From NCBI RefSeq assembly GCF_028641065.1, contig NC_073389.1, positions 23,498,001-23,562,000 on the forward strand: a DNA stretch of 64,000 nucleotides. The letters run 5' to 3'. Positions 3,701 through 63,382 of this stretch are shown here, in pieces; the first letter of the stretch is position 1; each line of letters starts with the position of its first letter. This DNA is from Leucoraja erinacea (taxonomy: Eukaryota). Under the pieces are notes generated by a model. The model saw only the letters and a list, made by a program, of their open reading frames with translations. It searched no databases and had not been told where the DNA came from. The position numbers and the translations under genes are program-made.

Positions 3701-4544
3701 GCTAGAGTAGAGGGCCTCCTCTCGTCTCTTTGCTTTACATCCCTCGAGGTCTTAAAAAGAGTCCCGATCCGAAAAGTCACCCATCCCTTTTCTCCAGAGA
3801 TGCTGCCTGACCCGCTAAATTACTCCAGCACTTTGTGTCTGTATTTGGCATAAATCAGCACCTGCAGTTCTTTGTTTCTACACAAAGAAGCTCCTCTAGT
3901 ATCTTTGATGTCCACCACCTCCATCTGGTCTGACGAAGAGTTCAGGTCCGTATCCATGTTCTCCAGAGATGTTGCCTGACCCGCTGAGTTACTCCAGCAT
4001 TTTGTGCCTTTTTTTTTGTAAACCAGCATCTGCAGTTACTTGTATCTCCTTCTTACTGCCCCACTCTCAAATCTCCAGGTATGCTCACTTTGAAGAAGTT
4101 CTCTGACAAGAGACCTTCTCTCACTGCTTCGCTGATTTCTGCAAGATTAATCTGTAGAAGGGACCTGGCCCAAAACATCAACCATCCTTTTTGCTTCAAA
4201 GAAGCTGCCTGGCCCGCTGAGTTACTCCAGCACTTGAGTCCTTCTGCTCGGAGTTAGTTTGGTCATCCATGATTGTCCCAACATTTGACTGAAAGATAAG
4301 CATTGGGTGACTTGCCTACTTACATTAATAATAACAATATAATTATAAGTAAGAGAGGGCAGAAACAAGCCCTACTTCAGCCCACTGTGGCCATCTATAC
4401 TTTTCCCATTTATCAGCACTTGGCCCGTAGCCTTCTGTGATTTGGTTATTCAAGGCCTCATCCAGATACATCTCAGATATGGGAGGTGCCTCCATCACTG
4501 TCCCCAGGCAGTGCATTTCAAGTTCCAGCCACCTTATAGTCAGA

Positions 4545-11585: not shown

Positions 11586-12189
11586 CTATAAAAAGATGTA
11601 TGTTTTCCATTCAGCCAACTAATGATACAAGGAACTGCAGGTGCTGAAGTCTTATTCTGGAGAAACTCAGCAGGTCAGGCAGACCCAGTCTGAATAAGGA
11701 TTCCAACACAAAACAATGCCTATTCATGTCTTTCAGAGATGCTGCCTGACCCACTGAGTTACTCCAGCACTTGCATTCTACTGAATGATGTTCGATTGTT
11801 TAACATGTTATATGTGTAGCAGCTTTAATTTACAAAACGTTGTAAGTTGCTTCACAAAAAGTAAACATTTTTTTACATCAACCATTTAAGGAGATATTAG
11901 GACAAATGGTCAAAAAGGTGTTCAGAAAGATGGAATGTCTTACAGAAGGAAAGAGGTGGGAGGTAATAACAGTGTTTGGGGACTAGGAAGCTGAAAGTCC
12001 AGGCACCAAGGTACAGATTAAATTCAAGAGGCTTGAATTGTTGAACATAAGCATTTAACATTTGTTTAGAGGAGACAGGCACAAAGGAATATGAAGGTAT
12101 GAATGAGAATTTAAAAAAATGCTAACCAGAAATCAATGCAAGTCACCAATTACATTGTAAATAAGTTAAAAGTACATCAGAAAAGTTAA

Positions 12190-12405
12190 AGAAACAAGGA
12201 ACTGCAGGTGCTGATTTACAAAAGGAGCACAAAAAGCTAGAGTAACTCAACAGGTCAGGCAGCATCTCTGGGGAACATGGATAGGTACCATTTTGGGTCA
12301 GGACCCTTCTTCAGACTAAGAGGGTCATGACTCGAAACGTCACATATCCACGCTCTCCAGAAATATTGCCCGACCCGTTGTTACTCCAGCTCTTTGTGTC
12401 TTCAT
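12190..12405. mobile_element. Palindromic Penelope-derived short element
   Basis: Two inverted arms meeting at ~12310-12320. A similar degraded unit lies at ~11630-11775. Confidence 0.7.
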
Positions 12406-16900: not shown

Positions 16901-16964
16901 TACCTCTAGCCTTTGTCACTTACTCCACCTGTCTGTCAATCACTCTCCCTCGCCTCTATCAACC

Positions 16965-17950
16965 TATCAGTGCTGGGACCCCAGCTATTTACAATATATA
17001 TCAATGATCTGGATGAGGGAATTGAATGCAACATCTCCAAGTTTGCGGATGACACGAAGCTGGGGGGCAGCGTTAGCTGTGAGGAGAATGCTAGGAGGCT
17101 GCAAGGTGACTTGGATAGGTTGGGTGAGTGGGCAAATGTATGGCAGATGCAGTATAATGTGGATAAATGTGAGGTTATCCACTTTGGTGGCAAAAACAGG
17201 AAAGTAGATTATTATCTGAATGGTGGCCGATTAGGAAAAGGGGAGATGCAACGAGACCTGGGTGTCATGGTACACCAGTCATTGAAAGTAGGCATGCAGG
17301 TGCAGCAGGCAGTGAAGAAAGCCAATGGCATGTTAGCATTCATAGCAAAAGGATTTGAGTATAAGAGCAGGGAGGTTCTACTGCAGTTGTCCAGGGTCTT
17401 GGTGAGACCACACCTGGAGTATTGCGTACAGTTTTGGTCTCCTAATATGAGGAAGGACATTCTTGCCATAGAGGGAGTGCAGAGAAGGTTCAGCAGACTG
17501 ATTCCTGGAATGGCAGGACTTTCATATGAAGAAAGACTGGATAGACTCGGCTTGTACACGCTAGAATTTAGAAGATTGAGGGGGGATCTTATAGAAACTT
17601 ACAAGATTCTTAAGGGGTTGGACAGGCTAAATGCAGGAAGATTATTCCCGATGTTGGGGAAGTCCAGAACAAGGGGTCACAGTTTAAAGATAAGAGGGAA
17701 GTCTTTTAGGACCTAGATGAGAAAATCATTTGTTACACAGAGAGTGGTGAATCTGTGGAATTCTCTGCCACAGAAGGTAGTTGAGGCCAGTTCATTGGCT
17801 GGATTTCAGAGGGTTAGATGTGGCCCTTGTGGCTAAAGTGATCAGGAAGGCAGGTGTGGGATATTGATTTGGATGATCAGCCATGAGCCAAGCTCGAAGG
17901 GCCGAATGGTCTACTCCTGCACTTATTTTCTATGTTTCTATGTTTCTATC
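16965..17950 (+). mobile_element. CR1 LINE, 5'-truncated, with about 250 codons of open ORF2
   Basis: SVLGPQLFTIYINDLD...SKFADDTKL RT motif, RPHLEYCVQFWSP, RRLRGDLIETYKIL. 3' end has the (TTTCTATG)n repeat. Confidence 0.95.
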
Positions 17951-24259: not shown

Positions 24260-26849
24260 CTTGAAACCAATGCCTTGAATCACATATCCCGGGAAAAAGA
24301 CTATACATTCACCTTATGTATTCCCCTCATGGTTTTTACTCACCTCTAAAACAACTTTTGCTTTATTATGAATTTGTGACTTTATTTATTTATTTATTTA
24401 TTTAAAAAAGATTTGAGCGTGAGAAATTCTGTGATCAGCGTGACAGCGTGAGAATTTCATGAAATGCGTGATTCTCACGCTCAATGCGTGGGAGTTGGCA
24501 GCCCTGAAGTAATGAAACAAATATTCATTAAATCAGGACATAAGTAACCATGACTGTGAATTTATAGTTTTTTTTGTGGGAAAAAAATGATGTCATAGGA
24601 ATTCTAATCTTACCTTGTCTACCATTTGATTGACCTCATTATCCTTCTGAAATCGTTGTTCAGGGGATTTGGGATGGAAAAATTGTTGGCAAAGCTACAA
24701 AAAAAATCAAACAATTCATTATCCCATGGATCAATCTAATATTTTCGCTTTCTAGAGAATGGCTGATTCCAGAATGATCTTCCTATACCGTCTGAGCTAC
24801 ATCCTACCATCTACCATACCTACAGATATTGCAAGGGAAAGGTTACAAATCTGGTCCCTCTGAGATTGCAGCTGCTTTAAGCACAGCACAAGGCAATGAG
24901 CATTGAGCAAACCTCACTGTTCAATCTCATTTTATTTCAGGAGACCCTTTAACATTACTGGATGTAAACTTGGAGCAAGTAAATGAGCAGGCATAAATTG
25001 TAGTCCAACTCCAAGAGGTAGTTGCTCATGGACAATATGGCATTTTGATGCATTTACTGGTGAGTATTATTATTGAAATAGATACAGCTGGGTCACGTTA
25101 ATTCCTGTGTTTACTTCTACTGTTCCACATTCAAATTATGCCAGAGAAAATGGAAAATTCTGAGCAAAGAAACTTGGCAAACATCTTGAAAAATAAGGGG
25201 CTTTGTGAGAATATGAAGAAAAAAAATCACAGGCACTTGTGGAATTAATTTTGGTGAGTTGCTAGCTCAGTAATATTCAATCTAATCTAGACAATGCTTC
25301 TGCCATTATCCCTGCTCCCATCTCCCCTGCTGTGGGGTTATATAGTGCCCTCCATAATGTTTGGGACAAAGACTCATCATTTATTTATTTGCCTCTGTAC
25401 TGCACAATTTGAGATTTGTAATAGAAAAAAAATCACATGTGGTTAAAGTGCACATTGTCAGATTTTAATAGAGGCCATTTTTATACATTTTGGTTTCACC
25501 ACGTAGAAATTACAACAGTGTTTACAGTGTTATTTTAGTTCTGAAGAATGGTCCCGACACAAAACTTCACATCCATTTCTTCCAGAGACATTGCCTGACT
25601 CGTTGCATTCCTTCCTAGTTTCTACATATTGAATACCTCAGACTTTCTCTTCACTAGCGGATGTACTTAAGGTTCATCCATGATTTTGGTTGGGGAACAC
25701 TCAGATTGACTTCTTTCTTATGCACAACTTGATGGGCAGATTGTGACAGGCAATATTTTTGGGCCTCTGGTGAGACAGGAGATGTGTTCATAGTACTTTT
25801 GTAAACCAACATCTGCAGTTCCTTATTTCTTAAATGGCTGTATCTGTCCAGTTCATTGAGGAGTGTGCTGCAGGTAATCTATGATCTAGAAACACACAGA
25901 AGTGTACATCTCATTAGAGTGTACATTCATCTCATTAGAGAATGTGTTCTTGCCAGGAAGGCTTTCAACGAGATGCAGAGTGTTCTCAAGGTTCAACCTG
26001 AATAGCTGCTTAACCCATGATTCATATTCTTATAGAAGCTGTTCCCAGGGACAGAAGGTGAAACAAATGTCAACTGCCGCTGGGAACCTTCAATGAAGTG
26101 AAAAACACCCTCTTGTATATCTGAAACTCAAGGTGTTGTTGATGAATGAGTGCTGCAAACTGACATGCTCAAAGGTCCTGGACTATATGCCAAGGGATAT
26201 GCTGAACCTTTGTGTTTCAAGTACTCAATTGGGAAAGACCAAAGTTTATAGCTGCCCTGTCATTGCGCACAAATTAGTTGAACTCTACCAAACTATTAGC
26301 TTTAAGTTGTAAATAAATGATGATGGATGTCATGCTAATGTTAAGTAACAGGCAAAACATAACTCTTGAAAATATTAACTTGAATAGTCTGTATTACATA
26401 TTTTAGATTTTTTTAAATGAGTAAAATATATTTTGAAGGAAAGGCTGGTATGGGTCAATTGTTTGCATATGTTTAGAATAAACCCCATGCTCTCAATGTG
26501 CATCAGTGAAAAAAACAGCTATATGGCTGCACTGACTGCACTATGTCACCATGGCTGGCTCAGATGAGTTGTTGAGGGAATGGAAGGATTGTAACAAGGG
26601 TCTGTTGCTGACAAATGGGTTCAGGTGATTGGGATTGTACAGAGATCTTCCTGTTGATATAAAGGAATTCATGGTCTTGGAGATGCATACAAGATTGCCC
26701 CCTGCACCAATCGGACACAAAAACAAATCTATGAATTCCCAAGCTCTTTGCTTTGAGTTAAGTGGAGACTAAAGAAGGGTCCCAATCCAAAATGTCACCT
26801 AGCCACATTCTCCAGGCCTGCTAAGTCACTCCAGCACTTTAGGCTTTAA

Positions 26850-27105
26850 AATTACAGCGTGGAAACAGGCCAGTTGGCCCACCGAATCTACGCCGACCAG
26901 CAATCACCTGCACGATCCTGCACACTAGGGACAATTTACAATTTACAGAATCCAATTAACTTACAAACCTATATGTCAGTGGAGTGTGGGAGGAAATCAG
27001 ATCACCCGGAGAAAACCCATGCGGTCACGCACTAAAAAACTCTGTATCGAACCCGGGTCTCTGGCGCTGTAAGGCAGCAACTCTACTGCCACGCCACCGT
27101 GCTGC
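26850..27105 (-). mobile_element. HE1-like SINE (another at ~27598-27890)
   Basis: Reverse-complement head GCACGGTGGCGTGGCAGTAGAGTTGCTGCC...GGGTTCGAT, with core and tail. Confidence 0.82.
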
Positions 27106-28164
27106 CCTGTACACCACTCTGCCACCCCATGCATCACTGACTTTGCAACAATTTTTTTGAAAAACAACATTTGCAGTTCCTTGTTTCTACCTATTTGCTT
27201 CTTTGGTGACAAGAAAAAGGAAATAACTAATGAAGTCCTTCAGAGAACACCAGTGGTTCTATTGACTTGTTATTACTTATGCACAACCATGAGGGTTCTA
27301 TTACTTTGTTAATACAGAAATATGCACGGGATGGAACTTTCTGATGCACATTTAATTTCAATGGGTTTTTAAACAAAAAAATCATGATGTGATATTTTAA
27401 AAACCGCTTAGCGGTTTTCCATCCTAGTGCAACAAATTTAGTGCTGTCTACTTGTAAAATATATTCATTAAATATAGAAATTTTGATGCCACAGACTTGG
27501 TGGGCTAATTTGTTTACTTCCAGGCTATATCTCTCTCTGATTGGGATATCAGCCTCCTCACTTTAAATCCTTAAGATCAGGTAATTCTCCTGTGTAAGTT
27601 TAGTTTAGATATACAGTATGAAAACAGGTACTTCAGCCCACCAATCCATGCTGACCATTGATCACCCATTCACATTAGTTCTATGTTATCCCACTTACCC
27701 TACATATTAGGCACAATATACAAAGGCCAGTCAACCTACAAACCTGCCGTTTTTGGGATGTGGGTGGAAACCAGAGCAACCAGATTAAACCCACATGGTC
27801 ACAAAAAACGTGCAAACTTAACCCGAGTTCAGGATCAAACCCAGGTCTCTGGAGTTGTGAGGCAGCAGCTGTACCAGCTGCACCATTGTGCTGTTATATA
27901 TATATTTGTTTTTAATTGCCTCACTTTTTGGTAGGGATGAAAACTATTTTGGGCACTTTTCAAATAAATTATAGATTTCACTCGTGTTCAAACTGGCCTC
28001 AACCACTACAACAGAAACAGATTAATTAGCCTTTCATCTAACATTTTTGGTCTTTGCTACATACATATTTTCTGCCTATTTTTTGCTTAACGATAGGGTA
28101 CATATTTCAAAATGAATTCATCGTGTGTAAAGTGCTTTGGTGGACCCAGAGGATATTCTGTAAA

Positions 28165-30371: not shown

Positions 30372-31872
30372 TACCATAACCATATAACCATATAACAATT
30401 ACAGCACGGAAACAGGCCATCTCAACCCTTCTATTCCGTGCCGAACACACAATCTTCCCTAGTCCCATATACCTGCGCTCAGACCATAACCCTCCATTCC
30501 CTTCCCATCCATATAACTATCCAATTTATTTTTAATGATGATAAAAACGAACCTGCCTCCACCACCTTCACTGGAAGCTCATTCCACACAGCTACCACTC
30601 TCTGAGTAAAGAAGTTCCCCCTCATGTTACCCCTAAACTTCAGTCCCTTAATTCTCAAGTCATGTCCCCTTGTTTGAATCTTCCCTACTCTCAGTGGGAA
30701 AAGCTTTTCCACGTCAACTCTGTCTATCCCTCTCATCATTTTAAAAACCTCTATCAAGTCCCCCCTTAACCTTCTGCACTCCAAAGAATAAAGCCCTAAC
30801 TTATTCAACCTTTCTCTGTAACTTAGTTGCTGAAACCCAGGCAACATTCTAGTAAATCGCCTCTGTACTCTCTCTATTTTGTTGACATCCTTCCTATAAT
30901 TAGGCGACCAAAATTGTACACCATACTCCAGAATTGGCCTCACCAATGCCTTGTACAATTTTAACAGTACATCCCAACTTCTATACTCAATGCTCTGATT
31001 TATAAAGGCCAGCACACCAAAAGCTTTCTTTACTCCACCATCCGGACACCAAGTGGCGGTCAGTGTTGCCTTCCGGTCATGAGGGGGGCCCCCGGTGGGG
31101 GTCCCTCTACGCAGGGATTCTCCCCCTCTACATTGGGGACCTGGGGTGGAGGGTATTGCACCGAGGAGTTCCCTGCAACCTGTTTCTCTCGCGGTTCACA
31201 GACTCGCCAGCCGCCTGCCACTTTTGCGGGCTGGAAGAGTCTGTGTACCACGTGTACATGGCGTGCGTGAGGCTGCAGCCCCTGTTTGAATATCTAAAGG
31301 GGCTGCTCCTTGCCTTCTGGCTGCATTTTTCACCCACCATCCTCATCTTTGGACACCCTGTGCGTAGGGGAGAGGGTAGGGCTGAAGATGTCCTGGTTGG
31401 GTTGCTCCTGGGCCTGGCCAAGATGGCCATCCGCGAGTCACGGCGCCAGGCGGCGGAGGGCTCTACCCGGGCCAGCTGCCTGCCCCTTTTCCGGGGTTAC
31501 GTCCGTGCCCGGGTGGGATTAGAAAGGGAATACGCCCTGTCTGTGGGCACCCTGGGGGAGTTTCGGGACCGCTGGGCTCCGCAGGGTGTTGAATGTATCC
31601 TCAATAAGGATTGTATCATAATTGTATAATAGTTTATTATGGATATATGTTTGTATTGTATTTATGGTGGTGGGTTCTGGCTTGTTTTATTGTAGTGTAA
31701 ATATTATTTTTTAATAATTGAATAAATTTTTGGGGAAAAAAAAAAAAAAAAAAAAAAAAAGCTTTCTTTACCACCCTATCTACATGAGATTCCACTTTCA
31801 GGGAACTGTGCACAGTTATTCCCAGATCCCTCTGTTCACCTACATTCTTCAATTCCCTACCATTTACCATGT
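30372..31872 (-). mobile_element. CR1 LINE 3' part, split by a Tx1/L1-clade insertion
   Basis: ORF2 VNGRELKNVGEQRDLGITVHSSLKVESHVDRVVKKAF (31761-31870) continues as LAFINQSIEYRSW...RPILEYGVQFWSP (30479-31030). 3' end has (ATATGGTT)n. Confidence 0.93.
31034..31756 (+). mobile_element. 5'-truncated Tx1-like LINE with poly(A) and 15-bp TSD
   Basis: Open ORF 31063-31629 with WRVLH and CCHC knuckle CHFCGLEESVYHVYMAC. AATAAA at 31721, pure A-tail, TSD aaaagctttctttac at 31019-31033 and 31757-31771. Confidence 0.9.
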
Positions 31873-35389: not shown

Positions 35390-36449
35390 CTTACAATGAA
35401 AAAGAAAATACAAAGATTATTGATTGCACCAAGCTGACAGTAATTAAAAGAACTTGGATCTAAACTCTAAGTGCCCTGATACCTCTTTTTAAAAATAATA
35501 ATCCCATTATTTATTTCCCCAATTGCAGTCTAGCTAAATAGTCTATCCCTCCCATCTTTCCCTCTCTCTCTAAATAATGCAATTACAAGTGCCACTTTTT
35601 AATCTGTATGAACCAATCTGGAATTCAGGGAAACCTTGAAAGATGATAGCAATTGCATCTGTTATCTCCATAGCCACTTTCTTCAGATCCAGACAAACTA
35701 TTGCCCTTTAGGCCCATTAACTTCCCCAATGCTGTTTTGTTTTCAAATGCTCCTCACTCACTCTCCAGGTTTGCCATTATTTTCAGGACGTCATTTTCAG
35801 GGTGTCATTTTCCATGAAGTAAGATACTAAATATTTCTCTGTCATTTCCTTGTTCCACAATACAATTTGTCTTGTTTGAGTTTGCGAGGAACCCATATCA
35901 ACTTTAGCTTTTTTAAACGTATCAATGGACGCTCTTGCAGTTTATTTATGTATTTCTTATTAGATTAGCTTCTCTTTCCTTATCAATGCCTTTGTGCATC
36001 CTTGTTGATTTCTGAAATGTTCCCAGTTCACAGGCTTAATCCTTTCTTTAACAACATTTTACTTTGACCTACAAGCTTCGTTAGCTTTGATTCATGGCTG
36101 GACAAGTTTTCATGATCTTTTTGCCTTAAATGGGAGGACATTAGGCTTTGTATTCATTGTTTGAAAGTTATTGCTTGTTTACTGTCATATCTTATGATAT
36201 GAATAAGAATTAAATCACTTTCAAATGTGTAAATACAACTATAATCGTGCTCCAGAAAGAACAATTAACTACCAGATCATCAAATAAAACCCTGACATGA
36301 TTACACAATTTGAGATCCAAACTAGCAAGTTTCCATGTTGGCTTCTCTAAATACCACCATAGGGTAATCACTCCTTTTAAATTAAAGGAGTTCATACCAC
36401 ACACTATTACAGCTCATATGGTTTGTCCAATCTACATGTCATATACAGC

Positions 36450-36732
36450 CACAAAGTGCTGGAGTAGCTCAGCGGGTCGGGCAGCTTCTCTGGAGAAAAA
36501 GAATGGGTGATGTTTTGGGACAGAACCCTTCTTCAGACTGAAAATAGAGGATGGGGAAGAGAAGGGACCCTTTTCCTACCTCCAGTCCCCCCCCCCTACT
36601 TTCAGTCTGAAGAATGGTTCCGAGCTGGAACATAACCCATTCGTTTTCTGCAGAGATGCTGCCTGACCTGCAGAGTTACTCCAGCACTTTGTGCCTATCT
36701 TCAGTATAAACCAGCATCTGCAGTTCCTTCCT
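36450..36732. mobile_element. Palindromic Penelope-derived short element
   Basis: Arms of about 100 bp in inverted orientation around a ~45-bp spacer, each with a degenerate CTGAAGA...GAAAC motif. Confidence 0.8.
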
Positions 36733-37521
36733 GTACATGTTGCTTATAGTCTACTACTTTTGCATGTGCCTTTAATTACCTGATTTACTGACTGCAAATC
36801 CTGCCAATATTGTTTGCCTCTTGCAGTTTCTCAGTTCCATCCAAAGTGATCCTTCTTTTTCTGATCTTTATATCTTTTTTTAAAGAATGTTCTTTTTTTT
36901 TCATTTTCCCTGCTCTGACTTTGATTGGAGATATACTCTGATACTTGTTAACCCTTCCTCAAATTATCATGCCATTTGCAATCTTGAACTATGGCTTTGG
37001 CCATTTCACATTAACTTCCCATCTCAATAACACCTACATATCCTTTCCATTATTTAGTTTTAAAGTCTCAGCTGTAAAATAAATAACGCTGATTCCAACA
37101 CTACTCCAATATAACCTGTCCCAGTAAAAGAGCTTTCTAACTTCCTTCTTCCCCTGTACAGTTGCTTTTGCCCAAGAACTGACGGCCATTTCCCTCATAA
37201 CAATCATTGGGTCAAGCATTCAATTTGCTACTCTCATTTAATTCCCATACCTTTGCTCTATTACCAAACTATGCATATTTCAGGATCTCTAACTAAGCCT
37301 TACCTCCAACTGATTTTTATATTTTCACTTTTGTAATAAACAGGAATAGGAAGTAAAATAGGGACAGCTAAATTGTTCTTCCCAATATCCTTCAGTTAAT
37401 TTTGTTTTCATGGCTGCTATCTGTTAGCAGAGGATATGTTTCTGACCTTGCTGACATTGGCCACATTGGTATCCTTTACCTTGATAAACATAAGAAAAAT
37501 AATGGAAACAAGATAAATTAC

Positions 37522-37674: not shown

Positions 37675-37897
37675 CTGAGAAGACAAAGAATTACAAAGAA
37701 ATTATGGTAGAATTTGCTTCTCGAACACAATCCTTGTTAATATTGAGCCATAAATGATTTAAAAAACCAGGCTTAAAGGTTTGATTGCTAATAAGAAAAT
37801 GTAATACCACATAATTTTCTGGAACAATTCTATAAAAGATTATATGTGTTGTTACAGTTTTCAGAAAGAAGTTGTAGATCTGAATAATTTTATTTCA

Positions 37898-38125
37898 GCA
37901 AAACACAAATTGCTGGAGGAACTCAGCGGGTCAGGCAGCTTCTGTGGAGAGAATGGATAGGCAACGTTTTTTGTCGGGACCCTTTTTCAGTAGAAGGGTC
38001 GTCTGAAGTAAGGTCCCGACCTGAAACGTCATCTATCCATTCCATCTACAGATGCTGCTGGACTCAAGTTATTCCACCACTTTGTGTTTTGCTCAAAATT
38101 CCAGCACCTGCAGTTCGTTGGGTCC
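37898..38125. mobile_element. Palindromic Penelope-derived short element with TSD
   Basis: Inverted arms flanked by tctgaataattttat (37879-37893) and tctgataattttat (38129-38142). Confidence 0.8.
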
Positions 38126-38775
38126 CTCTCTGATAATTTTATGTTGATTTCTTTGTTTATAACTGCAGAATCACCCAATAATACTGAACTTAATTACTTC
38201 TCCATTGTAATCACTTACATATCTGCCATATCTTTTATTATGTTTCCAGAATATTTGTGATCCTATTTTGATTGCTGTTAGAATGACGATGGTCTACTTT
38301 TTTTTCATAATAGTTTTAACTTTTAGCATTCCTATTTTTAATTTTTAAAGCAAATGTAAAACGAGATGACAAGTATTTCAGAATACGTTAAATATCTGAA
38401 ATCGATTGTAGGAATAATCTGAAGAACATTTCATGTGATAACAAGTGATACAAATGACATGAATTATCGCGATTATTTGAGGAGTCATATAAGGTGAAAA
38501 ATACAGCCAGTCTAGCAGTAATAACATACATGGCTTTTAGAAAGAATACCATAAGCAGAGTTTAAAGAGATTTAATAAGTGGAGGAAAAAAATTATTACA
38601 AAGAGTTGTGACATTCGTACAGTTTTGTAAATAGGTTAATGATTGTTTTAGCCGCAGAGCATTATTCAGGGGATGATAGCTGAATATGTCATTGCCTTGA
38701 GTGAAAGTACAAATAAGATTCCAAAAGCCTATATTCACAAGTATCATAGTGAAAAGGCTTTATTATATCAGGAAA

Positions 38776-42100: not shown

Positions 42101-42194
42101 CTTAAAAAAAAGCAAATGACAAATGTGTCCAATTTTAACTTTAGTTAATTTTTCCGTTCTTAATGTTTCAAAAATAACTGTTGTCCTGCAGTGT

Positions 42195-42391
42195 AGGAAG
42201 GAACTGCAGATGCTGGTTTATACTGAAGATGGGTACAAAGTGCTGGAGTAACACAGCGTGTCAGGCAGCATCTCTGGAGAAAAAGGATGGGTGACGTTTC
42301 GGGTCGGAATCCTTCAGTCTGCAGAAGGGTGCCGACCCGAAACGTCACCCATCCTTTTTCTGCAGAGGTACTGCCAGCACTTTGTGTTTAT
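42195..42391. mobile_element. Palindromic Penelope-derived short element with perfect 17-bp TSD
   Basis: Direct repeat ctgttgtcctgcagtgt at 42178-42194 and 42392-42408. Arms 42272-42307 and 42332-42367 are reverse complements at 35 of 36 positions. Confidence 0.88.
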
Positions 42392-42764
42392 CTGTTGTCC
42401 TGCAGTGTGTGCCTTATGCATTCTTAATAATCTAAATAAATTGGGGGGTTTTTAATGCAGCTGCGTGAAATCTGAGATAAAAATATTAGAAATATTCAAA
42501 ACATACAACAGGTCAGACAACATAAATATAGAGAATGGAAATTAGAAGAGTATTTGATTAACCTTTCGATTCTGGGTAAAACTGGGAACTGATACTAATT
42601 CTGGCATAAATGTACCAGAAAAAGGGATGAGGAATGAGATATTAGGCCTGGCACAAAGCATGTTCCAAAGAGACTAAGAGCAACTAATCAAGAACAACTA
42701 ATCTCACACCTCATCTGTTTAATAGAATATTTTCTTCATGTGTAAAAAATAAAAGAATATTTAG

Positions 42765-44876: not shown

Positions 44877-45514
44877 CTAAAGGCAAGTAAAACAAGATTT
44901 TACAACGTTAATTTTAGCGCATCAAACCAACTTACTTTCAAACGCTGGACACAAAATGCTGGAGTAACTCAGTAGGTCAGGCAACATCTGATGGGCTGAA
45001 TGGTCTAATTCTGCTCCTATGTCTTGTGAACATATGAACTTATGAATCTCTGGAGAAAATGGATAGGCAACGTTTCGGGCTGACCTTTCTTCAGAACCGA
45101 AATCAGAAACGTCACCTCTCCATATTCTCAAGTGATGCTGCCTGACCCACACAGTTAGTCCAGCATTTTGTGAATTAAATTCATCAGGATTTTAAAATCA
45201 TGACAAGATGTTACATTTTCCAATAGACTGTGCAAAGAGAAGATCAAAATTGTCAGGGTGTGTGAATGATGTCAGCAACTGATACTGGCAAGAGAGAGTG
45301 GAAGGAATTAAAATGAAACCTTTAATCTGCTGAAACCTCCTGGACCGACACTAGCCCTGTTACCCAGAAGATTTAGATAATACCAATGAAGAAATGCCAC
45401 TGACTAAACTAGAGAGCTTGAGGAATCGAGAGGTATAAGAGAAGAATGTACCAGGGTGTACAAATAGCTGCCCATGGTTTCATTCCTTGAAGCCTGATAT
45501 AATGAATACTCGAA

Positions 45515-45730
45515 CAAACATTGCTGGAGTAACTCAGCAGGTCGGGCAGTATCTGTGGAGCAAATGTAGACAGATGATGTTTCAGGTCAAGATCCTTCTT
45601 CAGATCCAGAAAGGTCCCAACCCTGAAAAGTTACCTGTCCATTCCCTCCACAGATGCTGCCTGACCCATTGATTTCCTCCAGCATTTTGTGTTTTGCTCA
45701 AGATTCCAGCATCTGCAGTTTCTTTTGTCT
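45515..45730. mobile_element. Palindromic Penelope-derived short element (another at ~44945-45172)
   Basis: Inverted arms meeting near 45605. Confidence 0.7.
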
Positions 45731-46035
45731 TTAATAGATACTTGTCTGAAATTAAGGATAACCAAGGAGCATTTGGAATGAAACTGCTCTTTGGTGACTG
45801 TAAATCGAGAACACATTTTACCTCACCTAATTTTCTTGGAAAGAAAGTCAAGCTCTGTCAAATGGGTCAAGAAAGCCAAGCTCTGGCAAGCTGTCAAGGG
45901 TGTATGTATTTCTTCCATCTAGTAGTTTGATTTAGCTTAGAGTTGTATCATGAAAGAATAGTGAGATATATTTACGTGGAGGCAAACTGAAGTAAGGACA
46001 ATGACGTGAAGGATATAAGGCACTACAGTCCAAAG

Positions 46036-48533: not shown

Positions 48534-49969
48534 GGCGTTTAATGCACACTATCTCCAACGCACACAACCAAGGTAACTCAAGGCGTCATGTCAATGTGAC
48601 CAGATCACCTACGAAATCCATCAGAAAAGTACCTGCCCGTCCGAAGATGAGACACATTTCACCTTCTCTCTTTATGATCCCCAATTCTGGAGTCCACTTT
48701 TAGTCCGGTCGGGGGAGGAAAATTCTTCTTAAAATGCAAAAATAAATTGAACAGCTTTTAGAATTAACTCGCTCTGCTGCCTGACAGGAATTGTCCTTAT
48801 TTTTTTAGGATTCAGGCATGAAGATAATGTCATATTTAAATCCGCGGGACTCCAGCGTCAGGACCCAAGATGATTGCACACAAAATGCATTTCAGAAAAT
48901 GAGGGGAATGGAATGACCTTAATTCGCTTTAATCCTCTTCATCACCATGCAGATACCGTGCCAAAAGGAGTCCAATAACAATGAAATCTAATGAAACTGG
49001 AAAGGAATCACCAGCAAAGCTCGCTCATTCGCTCCTACTCCCCTGGAAACATTACGATACGGAAATATTGTGAATTTGATTAGAACCAACAAATAAATGT
49101 AGCTATGAATTTCCCCTCTCCCCATTTAAAACATAACCGTGCTTCACTGTGAAGAGTTTTATGTTTACGTGAGTAAGCATTTTGTTTGAATCCTATCAGA
49201 AAATAAATGCAAATAACATGTTGCAATAGAAATGATCTTTCTTTTAATAAGCTAACATCTACATCGGTCTATACATTAATTCAGTACATTAATAAGTGCA
49301 CTAAATTAATTAATGTACTAAATTAATAAATGGAATAGACTGGTTAATGCGTACAGTGAATGCAATAACAACACAAACCCCCGTGGTTAAATCCGCAAAT
49401 GGTCTTTTAAAAAAAATAATCTTGACATTTTCAGAATTAAGAAAATCTATGATGATTGGGAGGGGGCTAGCTGGTGACATGGGGATATTGAACAAGGTGA
49501 AAATTCCAACAGGCGACGGAGGAATTGAGACAAACAGATTGAATTCTGCAGATCTTCCCAATCCTTTGGAAAGGAGAATTAATAATAAACAGCTTTTCAC
49601 GCACGCTTGGCGAGGGGGGAAATCGCTCTTTGCAGATTAAGTTGTGGATTGTCATTGGCAAGTCTGCAGAAACCCTTCTGTCCTCGAAATTGCCTGCTCA
49701 AGTGCTCAACAACTTGTCAAAAATACTGGGATATTCCACACAAACTGCTCCAAAAAAGGCAAAGAGTGAGAACCTAGAGAGGCTAAGCCTTTACAAACAA
49801 GCGAGAGAATAGATATAAACCGCATAAACAAGGTAAACGATTGCAAAATAAGTGGGGGGAAACGTGAGAATTGCATTGATTAAAGCAAAGTATAAACACT
49901 GTATAGAAATGGATGTTTAATGTTCACCTGTGTAGGCAAGGAAAGAAACAATGAACAAGAAATAAACAA

Positions 49970-50668
49970 GGTCGACAAAAATGATGGAGAAACTCTGCGG
50001 GTGAGGCAGCATCTATGGAGCGAAGGAAATAGGTGACGTTTCGGGTCGAGACCCTTCTTCAGACTGATGTGGGGGGCGGGAGGAGGAAGGTTGAGACAGT
50101 GGGCTGTGGGAGAGCTGGGAAGGGGAGGGGAAAGAAGGAGAAAGCAGGGACTACCTAAAATTGTAGAAGTCAATGTTCATACCGCTGGGGTGTAAACTAC
50201 ACAAGCGAAATATGAGGTGCTGCACCTCCAATTTACGGTGGGCCTCACTCTGGCCATGGAGGAGGCCCAGGACAGAAAGGTCGGATTCGGAATGGGAGGG
50301 GGAGTTGAAGTGCTGAGCCACCGGGAGATCAGGTTAGTTATTGCGAACCGAGCGAAGGTGTTGGGCGAAGCGATCGCCAAGTCTCCGCTTGGTCTCACTG
50401 ATGTAGAGCAGCTGACACCTAGAGCAGCGGATGTAATAGATGAGGTTGGAGGAGGTGCAGGTGAACCTCTGCCGCACCTAGAAAGACTGCTTAGGTCCTT
50501 GGATGGAGTCAAGGGGGTAGGTAAAGCGACAAGTGTAGCATTTCCTGCGGTTACAAGGGAAAGTACCAGGGGAGGGGGTGGTTTGAGTGAGAAGGGACGA
50601 ATTGACCAGGGAGTTACGGAGGTAGCGGTCTCTGCGGAAAGGTGAAAGGGGAGGAGAAGGGAAGATGT
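49970..50668 (-). mobile_element. Penelope-like retroelement 3' part: GIY-YIG endonuclease remnant plus terminal repeat
   Basis: Minus-strand translation ...PGTFPCNRRKCYTC...RFTCTSSNLIYYIRCSRCQLLYISETKRRLGDRFAQHLRSV...PVAQHFNSPSH...LEVQHLIFRL...PSGMNIDF, with two internal stops and TAG at 50153-50151. Frame not shown in the ORF track. Confidence 0.9.
50032..50065 (-). ncRNA. Minimal type I hammerhead ribozyme motif in the Penelope terminal repeat
   Basis: Minus strand reads AGU-CUGAAGA-A-GGGU(CUCG)ACCC-GAAA-CG-UC-ACC: intact CUGAnGA and GAAA boxes, stem II, GUC cleavage triplet, and palindromic ACGU in place of stem III. Activity untested. Confidence 0.72.
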
Positions 50669-51210
50669 GGCCGGATTTACCTACAGGTTTGGTAGGCTGA
50701 AGCCTAGGACCTCAAAATCTAGGGGGCCTCCGGCCAAGGTGTATAATATTTTTGACACTGTCATAGGCCTTTCGTACATATGCTGTAACAACGCACTGTA
50801 GTCTCTAAACAACTCTTCAGTAATTTTCCTTGCCCTCCATTTCAGAATAATAGTTTTAAGGGCCTGTACCACTGTACGAGGTCATTCAAGAGCTCTCCCA
50901 AGTTTAAAAAAAATCAAACTCATGGTAAGCACGTAGAATGTACGTAGCGGGTACGTCGGAGCTCGGGACGTCTCTTAGCTGCTCGTAACGCTAACGGCAG
51001 ATACTGGGCATGTCCATGAGAGCCCCGAGTACCTACGAGCGGATATTACCGTAAATTCTCCGAGTCTGGGGAAACTCGGGAGAACTCTTGAATTAGCTTG
51101 TACAGTGGGACAGGCCTATTAAGCCGATAACTCGACACTGGCACTGGCTATAAATAAATGTTTTAAAAGGGCAGCTTTCTAGCCCCTTATCTCATTAACC
51201 ACGCTCGACT
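50669..51210 (+). mobile_element. hAT-like element end, copy 1 (interrupted by a MITE)
   Basis: Near-identical to 54567-54830 (GCCGGATTTACCTACAGGTTTGGTAGGCTGAAGCCTAGGAC...). Confidence 0.7.
50859..51118. mobile_element. PIF/Harbinger-like MITE with TTA TSD
   Basis: Imperfect TIR of about 40 bp (GGCCTGTACCACTGTACGAG / CTTGTACAGTGGGACAGGCC). The paralogous empty site at ~54755-54775 reads tagttttaagccgataac. A related partial copy lies at ~51355-51651. Confidence 0.8.
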
Positions 51211-52319
51211 GGTTGTTGTTGTTGGTCGCTCTATTCCAAAGGCCAAGGTGAGATTCCCACAGGTGTTTCCAGCATCAGGGGATCATTCCTGACAGGTAGA
51301 CTTGGCGAACCTTCTTTTACTCACCTTTTTTTTCTCTGTCCAGCTGCTGAGTTAAGAGTACGCACGAGTTAATACAGGAAACTCACGAGTCACTATGGTA
51401 AACTCACGGGCTACTAGGGTATTACAATGAGTTTAAAAGTATCAACATTTTCCTTCAAGAGTATATTTAACTCGTGGAAATCTTTCAACATGTTGAAAAA
51501 TTTTCATGAGTTAATAAGTTTTCAGAGTACCTGCCGTTAGCGTCCACGAGCTCTGACGTCCCGCTACGTTCATTCTACGTGATTACCACGAGTTTGATAT
51601 GTTTTTAACTCGGGATAACTCGTGGGTGGACTCGCACTGTGGGACAGGGGTTTTACATTAAACTGACATTGCACCTGCATTACAAGGTATAATTGGAGAA
51701 TGAAGCCATTGCATTTCATTTGGCGCATTCAATACTCAGGTCGGCCGCAAGCACTTGGATTCATTGGATTAATTTCCCTGCCTTGTAATTGTTTTGCAAA
51801 GTAGTGAACAGTGATGCCTCCCAGCAGGCAGATGATGGCAGCAGGCAGCAGGTAAGCATAAGGCAGATGATGCCTCCCAGCCTCAGTAACCCGGGTTTGA
51901 CCCTGACACCAGGTCCTGTCTGTTTGAAGTTTGCACCATTGCCCTGTGACTGCAATGGGTTTCCCCAGGTGCTCCATCTCCTCCCACGCCCCGAAGACTC
52001 TTAGTCACCTACCTACCTACACAAGATGAAAACACAAGGAACTGCAATAGGCACAAAATGCTCGAGTAACCCAGCGGGTCAGGTAGCATCTCTGCAGAAA
52101 AGAAATAGGTGACATTTCGGGTGGAGACCCTTCTTCGGACTCTGGTGAAAAAGAATAGGTAAAGTCTCGGGTGGAGACCTTCTTGAGACTGAAGAAAAGG
52201 AATATGTGACATTTTGGTCAAGTCCCTTCTTCAGATGCAGATACTGGTTTACACAAAAGGACATAAAATGCTCGAGTAACTCAGCGGGTCAGAAAGGATG
52301 TCTGGAAAACATGGGTAGT

Positions 52320-53200
52320 TCATAAGTTATAGAGCAGAATTAGGCCATTCTGCCCATCGCGTCTACTCCGCCATTCAATCATGGCTGATCTATCTTTCCC
52401 CCTCAACACCCATTCACCTGCCTCTCTCCATATCCCTTGACACCCTTACTAATCAAGAATCTGTCAATCTCTACCTTAACAATATCTATTGACTTGGCCT
52501 CCACAGCTGTCTGTGGCAATGAAATCCATAGATTCACCACCATGCGAATGGGTAACATTTCAGGTTGGGACTCTACTTCAGAACCTAGAAGTAACTAAGT
52601 TGCATCTCCCTGCACATCTAACTAAGTTACATCTAGGGTAGGTATGGTAGACTAAAGAATCACATGGAGAATAAAGGGAACCTGTGAGAAAATAAAATTT
52701 CTGCGTTACAGGTTAGGAAGAGGGGAATGGGATTAATGGGCCAAATGGTCTTTTTCTGTGTTGTAACAAGCGGATGGTGTCTGCTTAGAAGTTTACATGT
52801 TAATGCTCATGTCAGGAGCAGAATTAGGCCATTCGGCCCATTGAGTCTATTCTGCCATTTAATCATGGCTGATCTATCTTTTCCTCTCACCCCATTTTCC
52901 TGCCTTCCCCCCATAACCCTTGGCACCCTTACTTAAGCAAGAATCTGTCAACCTCTTCCTTAAAATTACCCATTGCCTCCACAGCTGTCTGTGGCAAAGA
53001 ATTCCACAGATTCACCACCCTCTGACTAAATAAGGGCATTCGGCCCATCGAGTCTATGCCATTCAATCATGGCGGATCTATCTTTTCCTCTCAACCCCAT
53101 TCTCCTGCCTTCTCCCTATAACCCCTGACACCCTTACAAGTCAAGAATCTGTCAATCCCTGTCTTAAAAATACAGGATGATTTAGTCTCCACAGCCCTGT
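52320..53200 (-). mobile_element. Three CR1 3'-UTR fragments in the same orientation
   Basis: GGCCATTCGGCCCAT...CAATCATGGCTGATCTATC...AAGAATCTGTCAA repeated at ~52320, ~52815 and ~53035. Confidence 0.78.
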
Positions 53201-53627
53201 GGCATGTGGTTTTCCATGTGCTTTAATCGTGTTGACTAATCATTTGTGTGGATCTAAACAAAGGCCTTTTTAGAATCTATTTACACTACTCTGGTTACCC
53301 ATGATCTATTCTGTGGTTGTATCTCATAGAATTACAAAACAGATTAGTGAAGCGTGATTTCCCTTTCATAAATCCACGCTGACTATGTTCATTCCTCCTT
53401 TTTCCTTTCTGTGCGTTCTATTATTACAACCTTGAATATAGATTACCACCACTGACGTTTAGCTAACTGGCCAATGGGCCCTCATTTTCTCTCCTTTCTT
53501 AAATAGTGGCAACACATTAGCTGCAGATTGCATTCCAGAACATTTTGAATTTTGGAATATGATAACATTCATAATCTCTAGAGCCAACTCTTTCAAAGCA
53601 TTGGAAGTGCTTCGATTTTATTGAGGC

Positions 53628-54350
53628 ACAAGGAACTGCAGATGCTTGTTAATGAAAAAGACACAAAGTGCTGGAGTAACTCAGCCGGTCAAGCAGCATT
53701 TCTGGAGAACATGACTAGCTGACTGAAGAAGGGTCCCGAGCCAAAATGACACAGATCCTTTTTCTCCAGAGTAGTCAGGAAAAAGGTCCCGACCTGAAAC
53801 GTCACCCATTCTTTTGCTCCAGAGGTGATGCCTGACCCACTGAGTTACTCCACCACTTTGTGTCCATCTTTGGAATAAACCAGCATCTGCAGTTCCTTAT
53901 TTCTACTGTGAATAGATGACTGTCTGATTGACTGATTGATTGAAAGATACAGCAAGGTAAACAGGCCCTTCGGCCCACCGAATCCATGACGACCATTGAT
54001 CACCCGTTCACACTCATTTTATGTTATCACACTTTCACATCCACTCCCTACACACTCAGGGCAATTTACAGAGGCCAATTAACCTACAAACCTGTACATA
54101 TTTGGGATGTGGGAGGAAACCAGCGCAGCTGTAGGAAACCCACGTATTCACAGGGAGAACATACAAACACCATGCAGATAGCACCCAAGGTCAGGATGGA
54201 ACCCAGGTCTCTGGTGCTGTGAGGCAGTAACTCTACCAGCCATGCCACTGTGCCACCCTTCAGACTGATGAAAGGTCCTGACCTGAAATGTCACCTATTC
54301 ATGTTCTCCAGAGATGATGCTGAGTTACTCCCGCAGTTTGTGACTTTCTT
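53628..54350. mobile_element. Cluster: palindromic Penelope-derived element, minus-strand HE1-like SINE (~53925-54257), solo hammerhead-bearing repeat (~54260-54350)
   Basis: Family motifs as above. 54265-54295 reads CTGATGA-A-AGGT(CCTG)ACCT-GAAA-TG-TC-ACC. Confidence 0.75.
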
Positions 54351-56285: not shown

Positions 56286-58415
56286 CAATGGAAGATCGAC
56301 ACAAAATTCAGCGGATCAGGCAGCATCTCTGGAGAAAATAGATTTGGGTTGGAACCCTTCTTTAGACTGAGTGAATGTGCCTATCTTCGGCATAAACCAC
56401 AATCTGCGGTTCCTCCTACACATAGATAAATAACGGCCTGGGAATCATGTTCGGCTCAAACAATGTGGGCTGTGTTCTTGTGCTGTTCTATAAATCCTAA
56501 ATTTGCAGTATCTTTAATGTGGAAATAATCTGTGCAGAGCAGATTCTTCTCCATGTGAAAACATAAGAAGGGAGAGAACAAAATGGTGAATAACCAATGG
56601 CAGTTCCATACTTCCAACAGCAGAGGGTGCTGCCCTACACTCCCGGTGACAGTGAAACCAAACAACCCGCTGGATATTTCAGTTCCCTGAGCCGGATTAA
56701 TCGGCATTCCTTGCATGCCACAGATCAGATCTCAGGAACATGACAGAGTCAAGGTGTGCAGGATGGGAATACGGTGAATCTCTCTCATGGTAATGGGTTT
56801 GTTCAAACCTCCCATTTTATTTCACAAAGCAATGACAAGTCAAGGCAAAGCCATAAGAAGATCAACCTCCAAAGAGCAGTAAGAGTAAAGAGTCTAAATT
56901 AACAGACAATGCTTGGAAACGGATGGCACGATGCATGCAAGGGAAAAACTTGGGAGAAAATTCACTGGAGACCTTTAAACTTTGAACCCCATCTGTGAGT
57001 AATAATCTAAAGTACTCCTGCTGTTTGCAGCGACTGCAAGAGGTATTTGCAGTTATTATTGAAACTGCACATGCACGCAGAATTTGCTTGAATACAAATT
57101 AGACATGTTACAGCAAGCCCCAGGTTGTGGCATATTACCAATGCAAAGTGAATTTATTTCCAATATGACCTGACTCAAACATTTACAACTTATACAAATA
57201 GAGTGCGTGTGCAGGTGTAGCTGTGCAGATGCAATACATTACCAAAACATGTCTTCATACCTGCTTGCAAACAGTACATCTGGAACTAGTGTGATACCTG
57301 CTTGAACTATTGTGATTGGGTAATCGATGGTTGGTGAAGACACAGTGGGCCGAAGGGCCTGTTTCCATGCTATCTCTAAACTAAACTAAGAAGAGAAACA
57401 CGTGGGGGAAGGGACTGCAGGTGTTGATTTAAACCAAAGACAGACACAAAATGCTGGAGTAACTCAGCGGGACAAGCAGCATCTCTGGAGAGAAGGAATG
57501 GGTGACATTTTAGGGTCGAGACTCTTCTCCAGCATTTTGTATCTATCAATAGAGTCTATAGTGTGTGATCAGATGTTGCTTTCTAGATGCAAGACATTAC
57601 CAGATCATGTCTTCATACCTGTTTGCAAACAGTACTGTGGTAATTCAATGAAACTGAAAGATACAGCATGGAAACAGGCCCTTCTGGCCACCAAGTCCAT
57701 GCTGACTATCGGGCAAACATGCACACTATCCCACCTACGCATTCACTCCCTACATACTAGGGGCAATTTACAGGGGCCAATTAACTTAGAGGCCCACACA
57801 TAGTCTTCAGTCTGAAGAAAGGTCTCGACACAAAACGTTACCCATTCCTCCTCTCCAGAGATGCTACCTGTCCCGCTGAGTTACTCCAGCATTTTGTGTC
57901 TATCTAAGGAGGGAAATGCAATGGATTAAGTATCAAATGCTATGACAAAGGTAGTTAAAGTTATGAAAGATTTGTGAAGATTTGAGATAAATCAGAATGA
58001 GACCATAAATATAAGATGATTATTAAAATTTAAGAGAAACTTACTCCTTGTAATAAATGGTTAGAATATGGAATATATACTACAAAAAAGTAGCTGAGGT
58101 AATAAAATAGATGTATTTAAGAAAAGCTTGACTTAAAACCGGGAAAAGAAATAAAAGGACGGTTATGTGATGTAGGCGCAATATGATTAAATGTAAGAAT
58201 GACCTGCATTTATTGATTGACTGATTGAAAAATACGGCATTTGTTTGAAAGATACGGCATGGAAACAGGACCTTCAGCCAACCATCGATCAACCATTCAC
58301 ACTCATTCTATGTTATCCCATTTTCGCAAATGCTCCCTACATTCTAAGGGCAACTAACAGAGACAGCCTGGTCCAGGCACTCACTACCATCTACATAAAA
58401 AACCTGCCTCGTGCA

Positions 58416-61460: not shown

Positions 61461-61621
61461 CATGGTGTAGGTGCTGCTATCTCTCCTGGTCGATGCATCA
61501 CTGACGTCAATGTTAATGCCAGTGGATGGCAAGCAGCCTGGAGCCAGGATACACAGTCTGTAGAAGGGTCCCGACCCGAAACGAAACCTATCCATATTCT
61601 CCAAAGATGCTGCCTGACCCA

Positions 61622-61775
61622 TATCTCCCTCTATCCCTCTCTATCTCTCTATTTCTCTCTCTCTCTCTCTTTCAATTTATCTCTGTCCCTCTCTCTTCCT
61701 CTCTCTTTCAATTTCCCCCTCTCAATTTCTCTTTCTCTCTCTCTCCCTCTCTCTCTCAGCTGCTCTCTCTCGTCA
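61622..61775. repeat. (CT)n-rich low-complexity tract within a Penelope terminal-repeat copy
   Basis: Pyrimidine tract splitting the repeat at ~61555-61850. Confidence 0.8.
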
Positions 61776-63382
61776 AAGTGCCGAGAGTTATTCCACCACT
61801 TTGTATCCTGTTGTGTAAACCAGCATCTGCAGTTCCTCGTTTCTACACCTCAACTAAAGATGTCAGAAGAGGAAGGATAAAAGGTTCGAAGTTGATGCTT
61901 ACCGCCCGTGAACCCTATTCGCATCACGAATGTACATGTCACATGCAAAGATGTTTGCTGGGGAGGGGGAAGGGGGAAGGGGGGGGGGGGGGGGGGGGGA
62001 TGAGGGGTGTTTCTCGCTTTAGCAGATAACAGGACAGATGGCAGTTATTTCACGGGCAGGATAGACAGGATGGGTGAATTGTGAATGTAACGTCCAGGGC
62101 GAATGATGTCTTTGTGTATCGCGAGGCCACAATGTTCCCGCCCCTGCATTAAATACATGTCTTTGAATTTCACAGACTAATCGGGAGATAAGAACAAAAG
62201 GGTTCACAAATAGATTCTTGAATGTGCATTGAATATCATCAGACACAAATAATACCTTAAAAAGCAACAAAAAGCAGCACTTAACTCCCACATACAAATT
62301 ATTTTCTATTGTTCATTCTCACCATTGAAACCAGCGCAGTGGACCGTAAACCGCAGGTTGAACGGTTATGCACAATCAATGCGGGGGCGAATTCTGCACA
62401 ATGAGTCGGCCCCACCACACCGAAACATTTTGCATTTCACTATCCCCTTGATTTGTTACATTACCGCTAAATATCGGAATTCATTCTATTCTTCCCTCTG
62501 CCAAAGGAGAGGGCACTGTGCCGCCCGTGTTGCAGGAATAATGCTTCAGGGACATAGAGCACCAGTGTCTTTGTCCTAGTTGAAGAATTGGCCGCTAAAC
62601 ATAATCAAATCCAGTCGATATTACCTTGCACCGGTTGAGAAGATGTTTATTATAAATATCTTTATATATTATTAAACAGCAAAATGTATTTATATGACAG
62701 ATCACTGAGAGTGTTTCTGTAAAGGATGAGTTTAATTCGCAAGGAAGCAAAATATTTTGTTATTAGACAGTAAATGTGAAATATCTGTGTTCTGGCAGCA
62801 TCACAGCGCGGGCGTGTATTCCCGCAGCGGCGCCTGTGTGTACGCAGCCACCGCTCTGAGATCACCCAAGTGTATGTAAACGTACAGTTTAATCCCGCTC
62901 ACCGTCGGTTTAATTTCGACCGAACAAGTTAAATCGCCATGAATCCTAAGCAATATTTAATTATTCCCAATGTACGCCATTTTATCGAGGCTGTACATAA
63001 TAAAAGAATGGAGCATCGAACGGTACAGCACAGGAACAGGCCCTATTACCCACAAGGTCTGTACCGAACACGATGCCATTTAAACTAATCTACCCTGCCT
63101 GCACATAATTCATATTCCTCCATGCTTTGTTTATCCATATGCCGATCTAAATAAATCCTTAAATGCCACTAATTTAACTGCTTCCACCATCACCCCTGGC
63201 AGCACGTGCCAGGCACCCACCAATTGTAAAACATTGTCCCACACAAATCATTTAGATTTTGCCCATCTCACCTTAATTATATGGTGAATCTATTTTTCAT
63301 ATTCAAATTGGGGAATAGAATTTGCAGTAAACCGGAGCAATTGGTGACGTTTGGAGTTGAGACTGAAGAAAGGTCTCAACCC

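Follow-up and report, generated by a model that had tools for sequence, protein, structure and literature searches.

Structures resembling the locus analysed here have been described among the EN+ Penelope-like elements (PLEs), in which an inverted, 5'-truncated copy adjoins the element and a tail of 30–40 bp is often present at one end only (PMC8557442). PLEs are also known to exhibit head-to-head inverted pseudo-LTRs (pLTRs) with palindromic junctions and target-site duplications (TSDs) of 8–10 bp, an arrangement that has been read as the outcome of self-priming (PMC3846280), and Penelope from Drosophila shows the same layout together with an internal-type promoter (PMC2377424). In an alga, the median length of PLE insertions is 128 bp (PMC9977147). 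The Neptune clade is defined by a CX2-5CxxC linker preceding the C-terminal GIY-YIG domain, a feature shared with Nematis (PMC8557442). The minimal version of the hammerhead has been defined in PMC4209133, where Schistosoma pairs located on opposite strands about 100–700 bp apart are described as well. The PLE protein from anole is predicted to be a dimer; it cuts the two target strands and extends each of them, initiates reverse transcription at two positions within the RNA by which the tail is delimited, and works without hammerhead cleavage (PMC11167929). How the inverted ends and the one-sided tail are formed is nonetheless stated to be unresolved (PMC8557442, PMC3846280, PMC11167929).

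The focal element was identified in a 64,000-nt stretch of DNA (hereafter the window, in which all positions are counted from the first letter). It comprises an insert of 197 bp (42195–42391) bounded by identical 17-mers at 42178–42194 and 42392–42408, and the claim of the initial annotation that two inverted Penelope terminal repeats are enclosed here by a perfect 17-bp direct repeat was borne out: the repeat matches at 17 of 17 positions, its score was reached by none of 600 random position pairs, and the 17-mer has just these two occurrences within the window. The TSD overlaps the family sequence at both ends, as the last 4 bases of its left copy are also the end of the family tail and the first 2 bases of its right copy continue the family sequence. 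The left arm is a subfamily A pLTR (42195–42315, minus strand in the element sense), which terminates within the hammerhead core and carries the PLE tail of about 36 bp (42191–42226, minus strand) that is missing from the right arm and was delimited from the alignments and from two classes of arm 3' ends. The right arm is a tail-less pLTR of the same subfamily (42316–42391, plus strand) with a 19-bp internal deletion. The arms meet head to head at a self-complementary motif around TCAGT (42312–42325, centre base 42318) and are 90% complementary across 52 nt (42264–42315 versus 42324–42375); the 36-bp core with one mismatch noticed earlier is readable in the arm alignments. The fold predicted for the RNA is a single hairpin (-114 kcal/mol, z -13.9). 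The focal element contains no ORF, and no ORF for a PLE-type reverse transcriptase was found in it or elsewhere in the 64-kb window. It is well supported that the focal element is a single ORF-less insertion made by a PLE and composed of two head-to-head pLTR arms. The earlier identification of the repeats as Penelope ends that carry sequence derived from a hammerhead, and their insertion in a single event accompanied by a long TSD, are upheld. The focal architecture is the published PLE signature in an extreme, ORF-less case.

The search with a profile built from nine window copies identified 59 arm matches (55 at E < 0.001), grouped in 39 clusters that together occupy 4,896 bp (7.7%) of the window. 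This corresponds to approximately one short arm per 1.2 kb, with a quarter of the loci two-armed, and these figures, like every count reported here, refer to one 64-kb window. The arms sort into four broad subfamilies (A, B, C and D), whose final composition was decided by hand from an automatic classifier, which assigned 11689, 12196, 45101 and 45495 poorly, and from a tree of 46 rows and 91 columns, which has 2 starred branches and is weak beyond the broad groups. The parent-type element is represented by a 5'-truncated and broken PLE of subfamily D (49965–50711, minus strand), comprising a C-x4-C-x2-C linker, a GIY-YIG region, a pyrimidine-rich 3' region and then an arm. This arm (49978–50063) possesses an intact minimal hammerhead and runs unbroken into the pyrimidine-rich region and the endonuclease-coding fragment, and because of this continuity with a broken PLE coding fragment the arms are regarded as PLE pLTRs. 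Judged from sequence, the pLTR thus appears joined to a GIY-YIG-coding PLE body in subfamily D, and the same is suggested for the focal arms by homology. The Pfam match of the fragment to GIY-YIG is weak and under the cut-off (E 0.05), and its top matches in the Atlas (0.93–0.94) are chordate clusters with GIY-YIG on 12–20% of members. The order of the linker and the C-terminal GIY-YIG region resembles the Neptune clade (PMC8557442), although this likeness is drawn from a subfamily D fragment without a reverse transcriptase, while the focal element belongs to subfamily A. Several arms are interrupted by later inserts, either other repeats or a CT microsatellite (25540–25830, 26767–27190, 44946–45095 and 61556–61846), and therefore the arm family is older than a part of the local repeat activity.

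Eleven loci were treated as two-armed: the eight named in the initial annotation, two further ones at 56283 and 57405, and one at 2877 that was recognized by eye. Seven siblings had been said to share the focal architecture. Two inverted arms are indeed present at all seven, but their junctions, arm lengths and subfamilies differ. The locus 12190 (12188–12402) belongs to subfamily B, with the tail on the left and a 13-bp TSD, and 37898 (37894–38128) to subfamily C, with the tail on the right, a stuttered junction and a TSD of 14–15 bp. Duplications had been attributed to the other siblings as well, but they are borderline in 36450 (36447–36733, subfamily A, tail right, both arms reaching upstream sequence; p 0.06) and weak in 45515 (45513–45732, C-like, tail right; p 0.15), and the remaining three do not support the claim. 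In 44945 (44946–45172) both arms are tail-less, the left one is split by a later insert and no TSD was found; in 11629 (listed before as 11630; 11624–11776) the left arm is short, deleted and tailed, the right one is longer and tail-less, and the TSD is not significant; and 53628 (53624–53906) is three-armed, with one inverted and two partial tandem arms, subfamily B on the left and A on the right, tails on both outer arms and no TSD. Among the added loci, 56283 (56291–56422) has a right arm consisting of the tail alone, which overlaps the other arm by ~12 model positions, in 57405 (57402–57546) the left arm is tailed and the inverted arm opposite it, 21 bp in length, has no tail, and 2877 (2871–2964) exhibits one long arm, a possible inverted arm of ~10 bp (by eye) and a 15-bp TSD. 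A significant TSD was obtained for 6 of the 27 loci tested, i.e. 4 of 11 two-armed and 2 of 16 others (the difference is not significant, p 0.19), with lengths of 12–17 bp at these loci; the element boundaries had been placed by hand, and an unbiased run returned the identical significant set. The interpretation of 11629 as a chimeric locus was considered and found unsupported.

Reads from three DNA runs (three organisms, one of the runs, X2, possibly being the window's own sample) and from one oligo-dT RNA run, four of 24 listed runs in all, were mapped to a 1.1-kb stretch around the focal element. Between 170,000 and 195,000 contigs per DNA run mapped to it, a figure that indicates great abundance rather than copy number. 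The focal insertion is present in all three organisms, as contigs enter the element from both flanks, with none spanning it, and no empty site was encountered in the three DNA runs. In organism D the flank differs at 20 of 449 bases, and the focal insertion predates the split from this organism. Loose ends of copies from across the genome pile up at 42191, and among 15 of 2,808 joints listed the top opposite-strand joints are also at 42191, which may reflect neighbouring copies. The searches with a degenerate junction pattern returned no matches in viral contigs and none in metagenome contigs. In a search across sequencing runs no RNA run was listed as a carrier, which weighs neither way.

The two-armed loci could be copies of one propagating unit or products of a recurrent event. 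The former was proposed in the initial annotation as a MITE-like family, and finds no support in the comparison of the loci. All 11 junctions differ, the two-armed loci are spread over subfamilies A, B and C, the tail is on the left in some and on the right in others, and arm lengths vary. Single arms outnumber pairs and can carry TSDs of their own, the tree reveals no supported clade of left or right arms (with few columns and weak resolution), and the loose-end consensus shows no palindromic continuation. What a non-autonomous family transposing as a palindromic unit has in its favor is that three contigs from other loci span the focal junction with about 84% identity and 0–6 gap letters, so that similar junctions do recur, and that about six of the 11 junctions are clustered at the 5' boundary, no more than a few bases away from it; such recurrence is explained by a hot spot common to these loci. 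We regard this origin as quite improbable for the palindromes in general, and propagation may concern a minor subset of them. The palindrome probably arises anew at each insertion, if twin priming and fold-back are taken jointly, and the other proposal of the initial annotation, recurrent formation during Penelope reverse transcription, is supported in outline and has already been published for PLEs (PMC3846280, PMC8557442). A simple fold-back that starts from the tailed arm would yield 4 of the 8 one-tailed elements only with extra deletions.

The relationships between the paired arms were also analysed with respect to the suggestion that each palindrome has been copied from a single template. 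In 7 of the 8 pairs that could be typed, the two arms are of the same subfamily (p 0.002), the exception being 53628 (11629, 57405 and 2877 are excluded from this count, as their short arms permit no typing), which is compatible with that suggestion. The private variants invoked in its support give no proof of it: none is common to both arms in the 6 testable pairs, and GAACC, considered private to the two arms at 36450, is also found in 4 other arms. Paired arms share 14 non-consensus letters versus 12.2 expected from same-subfamily pairs (P 0.33). Reciprocal nearest neighbours among the arm pairs compared are limited to the two focal arms, which differ by 8% from each other and by 19% from their subfamily mates; this fits a younger insertion whose arms started identical.

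The analysis of arm termini provides further constraints. The 3' ends of 50 arms fall into two classes, with 20 at model positions 1–8, none at 9–16 and 23 at 17–41, and in the ten longer two-armed loci 20 of 20 outer ends lie within these two zones. Eight of the 11 two-armed loci have a single tailed arm (p 0.11, not significant on its own). In four of the eight one-tailed loci (11629, 42195, 45515 and 56283) the arms are not nested, i.e. the tail-less arm extends further 5' than the tailed one. At the opposite end the boundary is sharp: 43 arms extend as far as position 116, but upstream continuation is seen in just 4 of them (7 if three near-threshold G-rich cases are included), the rest ending within ~15 nt, and the consensus of loose ends beyond the boundary is AT-rich, with no resolved sequence, and is not a palindromic continuation in any of the 4 runs. 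The boundary motif TCAGT is self-complementary; it resembles an initiator and equally a 3' splice site preceded by a pyrimidine tract. Inspection of the window arms by eye revealed no shared spliced first exon upstream of this boundary. In the arms 20734, 26769, 46039, 53722 and 54264 the central T of the motif is replaced by A, as would be expected for the opposite arm of a junction; this form may be left over from joining or may characterize a variant subfamily.

On balance, we lean towards the possibility that the focal two-armed insertion was made by twin priming at the time of insertion rather than copied from a palindromic master. According to this model, a Neptune-type PLE protein supplied by a full element elsewhere would nick both target strands 12–17 bp apart, and each 3' end would prime reverse transcription at one of two internal start sites bracketing the tail. 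Each cDNA would extend just 90–130 nt, to the fixed 5' boundary past the hammerhead, which is probably the 5' end of the RNA with its initiator-like TCAGT. The two cDNA 3' ends could then anneal via the self-complementary motif, with the TSD filled in by repair, while single priming would give rise to the single arms, which are more frequent. Once inserted, the arms would decay neutrally, with the hammerheads as passengers. The model predicts one tail per element, fixed outer ends, arms from the same source and arms that need not be nested, and it is supported by the differing junctions, by the lack of tail-to-tail neighbours among adjacent arms, by the sharp 5' boundary, by the overlap of the focal TSD with family sequence, by the observed outer ends, by the common subfamily of most pairs, by the non-nested half of the one-tailed loci and by the tail-only arm of 56283. 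On the other hand, non-nested arms could also have arisen by subsequent deletion, a frequent event in these elements (19 bp are gone from the focal right arm), significant TSDs are limited to a minority of loci in both groups, and no empty site was found. Moreover, the supporting biochemistry concerns a Poseidon element and not Neptune, the putative transcription start at TCAGT reads as a 3' splice site too, and palindromic junctions are equally predicted by fold-back (PMC3846280). The literature listings, which left subscription papers outside their scope, contained no twin-priming model for PLEs, and the available portion of bioRxiv 10.1101/2025.06.08.657570 does not mention Penelope.

The main rival of twin priming is recurrent fold-back, in which the cDNA or an antisense template primes its own copying at a small inverted repeat, after which trimming of one end by the endonuclease would leave just one side tailed. 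It has the advantage of being the published reading of palindromic head-to-head junctions (PMC3846280), with the tail attributed to endonuclease resolution (PMC8557442), and it is consistent with the near-perfect small palindromes at the junctions of 12190, 36450 and 42195, with pairs drawn mostly from one subfamily, with the half of the one-tailed elements that are nested as predicted, and perhaps with 54264, which may hold a centre-proximal micro-arm (by eye). The non-nested half, the tail-only arm of 56283 and the mixture of subfamilies B and A in 53628 argue against fold-back, and the later in vitro work links the tail to the start sites of reverse transcription (PMC11167929). Since later deletion or trimming could account for the lack of nesting, and deletions are common, we still consider fold-back a plausible, albeit clearly less probable, origin of these elements. 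Two independent insertions, in which a protein that prefers its own pLTR adds a new arm to the 5' end of a pre-existing arm, would accommodate the mixed subfamilies and missing TSD of 53628 and the high density of arms, and a PLE protein may nick its own pLTR (PMC11167929). However, a single TSD encloses both arms in 42195, 12190 and 37898, and among 16 adjacent arm pairs there are 9 head-to-head, 7 tandem and no tail-to-tail neighbours (p 0.004). The predominance of same-subfamily pairs and the mutual relationship of the focal arms, which are each other's closest relatives, also speak against separate insertions, and we find them unlikely.

The hammerhead motif itself is mostly decayed. The arms resemble the minimal type I hammerheads of metazoan PLEs (PMC4209133) in the core, in an extra base before stem II, in the lack of helix III and in the palindromic bases 15.2–16.2. 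They differ in the broken state of both focal cores, in a helix I of just 2 bp in the genomic sequence and in the absence of any match to an Rfam hammerhead. The initial annotation assumed a usable hammerhead on each strand, but neither focal arm retains the combination of an intact CUGANGA and GAAA core, stem II and a cleavage triplet. The left-arm relic (42293–42318, minus strand) has a core 3 nt shorter at the junction and fails the minimal descriptor, while in the right-arm relic (42319–42346, plus strand) a core A, present in most family copies, is replaced by C at 42322; both cores are located inside the stem of the predicted hairpin. Among 45 arms covering the motif 2 pass the minimal descriptor, none of them in a two-armed locus. 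In Rfam there were no matches at gathering scores over the window, and with the limit relaxed to E 10 neither the intact arm nor the focal element was assigned to a hammerhead family; the sub-threshold hairpin matches at that level, including those to miRNAs, were rejected as generic. The cleavage site lies ~30 nt inward of the 5' boundary, and because the copies do not end there, the templates were uncleaved, in agreement with PMC11167929. Immediately before the hammerhead, whose helix I pairs over just 2 bp, the extended arms, including the one at 50064–50150 (minus strand), have a pyrimidine tract terminated by CAG, and by analogy with Drosophila Penelope (PMC4209133) splicing might supply another helix I for such arms.

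The family sequence was detected in 56,747 of 12.9 million RNA reads from the one oligo-dT run (about 5% of which was read). The reads represent both strands about equally, 97% of them continue into unrelated sequence, no pile-up of starts or ends was seen in this sample, and the depth over the focal flanks is 0–1. The family RNA is passenger transcription. The presence of these reads and the strength of the predicted hairpin could speak for retained ribozyme or small-RNA genes, but the rarity of the minimal hammerhead, its absence from two-armed loci, the burial of the focal cores in the stem and the features of the reads make such a function highly improbable, and the two-armed hairpins are not a new functional ribozyme system. 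RNA editing was also considered and rejected, since the A-to-G sites (64 versus 34–40) are accompanied by an increase in most other change types.

In comparison with the EN+ PLEs mentioned at the outset (PMC3846280, PMC8557442, PMC2377424), the elements studied here share the inverted head-to-head arm, the palindromic junction, the one-sided tail of 30–40 bp, the TSD, partial tandems and 5' truncation. They differ in the lack of an ORF between the arms, in the total length of ~200 bp, in the density within the window, in the sharp 5' boundary, and in TSDs of 12–17 bp as opposed to 8–10 bp in the examples from Adineta (PMC3846280). Non-LTR retrozymes (PMC7229834; bioRxiv 10.64898/2026.07.22.740005) are likewise short, non-coding, PLE-related and hammerhead-derived, but they form head-to-tail tandems of intact ribozymes, whereas here single or inverted arms with decayed motifs are dispersed. 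Assignment of the focal element to this class was rejected, as it is inverted and the tandem clusters at 52046–52320 and 3750–4040 hold truncated or broken arms. MITEs are similar in being short and non-coding, with inverted ends and a TSD; the present elements, which are derived from a retroelement, have no fixed ends of terminal inverted repeats, no fixed TSD length and no shared internal sequence. The MITE classification was dismissed on account of the ends made asymmetric by the tail, the TSDs of 12–17 bp and the 11 different junctions. In twin priming of L1, both target nicks prime cDNA synthesis, which places an inverted 5' part inside one TSD. The two L1 arms derive from separate stretches of a single RNA that do not overlap, while the arms found here mostly overlap and have two fixed starts.

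A more speculative interpretation, to which we assign a low probability, is that the real mobile unit is an ORF-less RNA of ~130 nt with its own start at TCAGT, a Penelope-driven equivalent of a SINE that would be among the dominant repeats of these genomes, with twin priming turning about a quarter of its insertions into long hairpins and a minority of the palindromes perhaps being re-copied as units. If so, it would provide a very large natural record of how the inverted ends and tails of Penelope are formed, and a genome-wide source of double-stranded RNA. The high abundance and the sharp 5' boundary make the formation of PLE ends countable, so that twin priming and fold-back become separable in young copies. 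For annotation, it is relevant that these hairpins mimic MITEs and pre-miRNAs and belong under PLE end repeats. No account of such a unit from cartilaginous fish turned up in the literature searched, which comprised neither subscription papers nor Dfam and Repbase.

Several other observations were made in the window. In 57402–57908 a tailed left arm and a full tail-less right arm are most closely related to each other (12% divergence), and a degenerate repeat of ~13 bp (p 0.03) surrounds the pair. Between them lie, besides the short inverted arm, a SINE-like repeat and 79 bp that copy (84%) the host DNA at 57199–57277, and possibly host DNA has been captured between inverted pLTRs, as in PMC3846280. 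The segment 52046–52320 consists of four differently cut-down arms arranged head to tail as a miniature partial tandem. In 3690–3915 a tailed arm (3750–3880) is situated between two related short inverted hairpin-like sequences from outside the PLE family. A separate MITE-like element with 45-bp terminal inverted repeats (87%) occupies 50861–51116, directly upstream of the PLE fragment. Finally, LINE fragments were identified in 16910–17716, 30479–31195 and 31006–31629, with a match to RVT_1 (E 5e-7) and a weak match to zf-RVT (E 0.006); the frame at 30479 resembles the same LINE C-terminus without a Pfam match.
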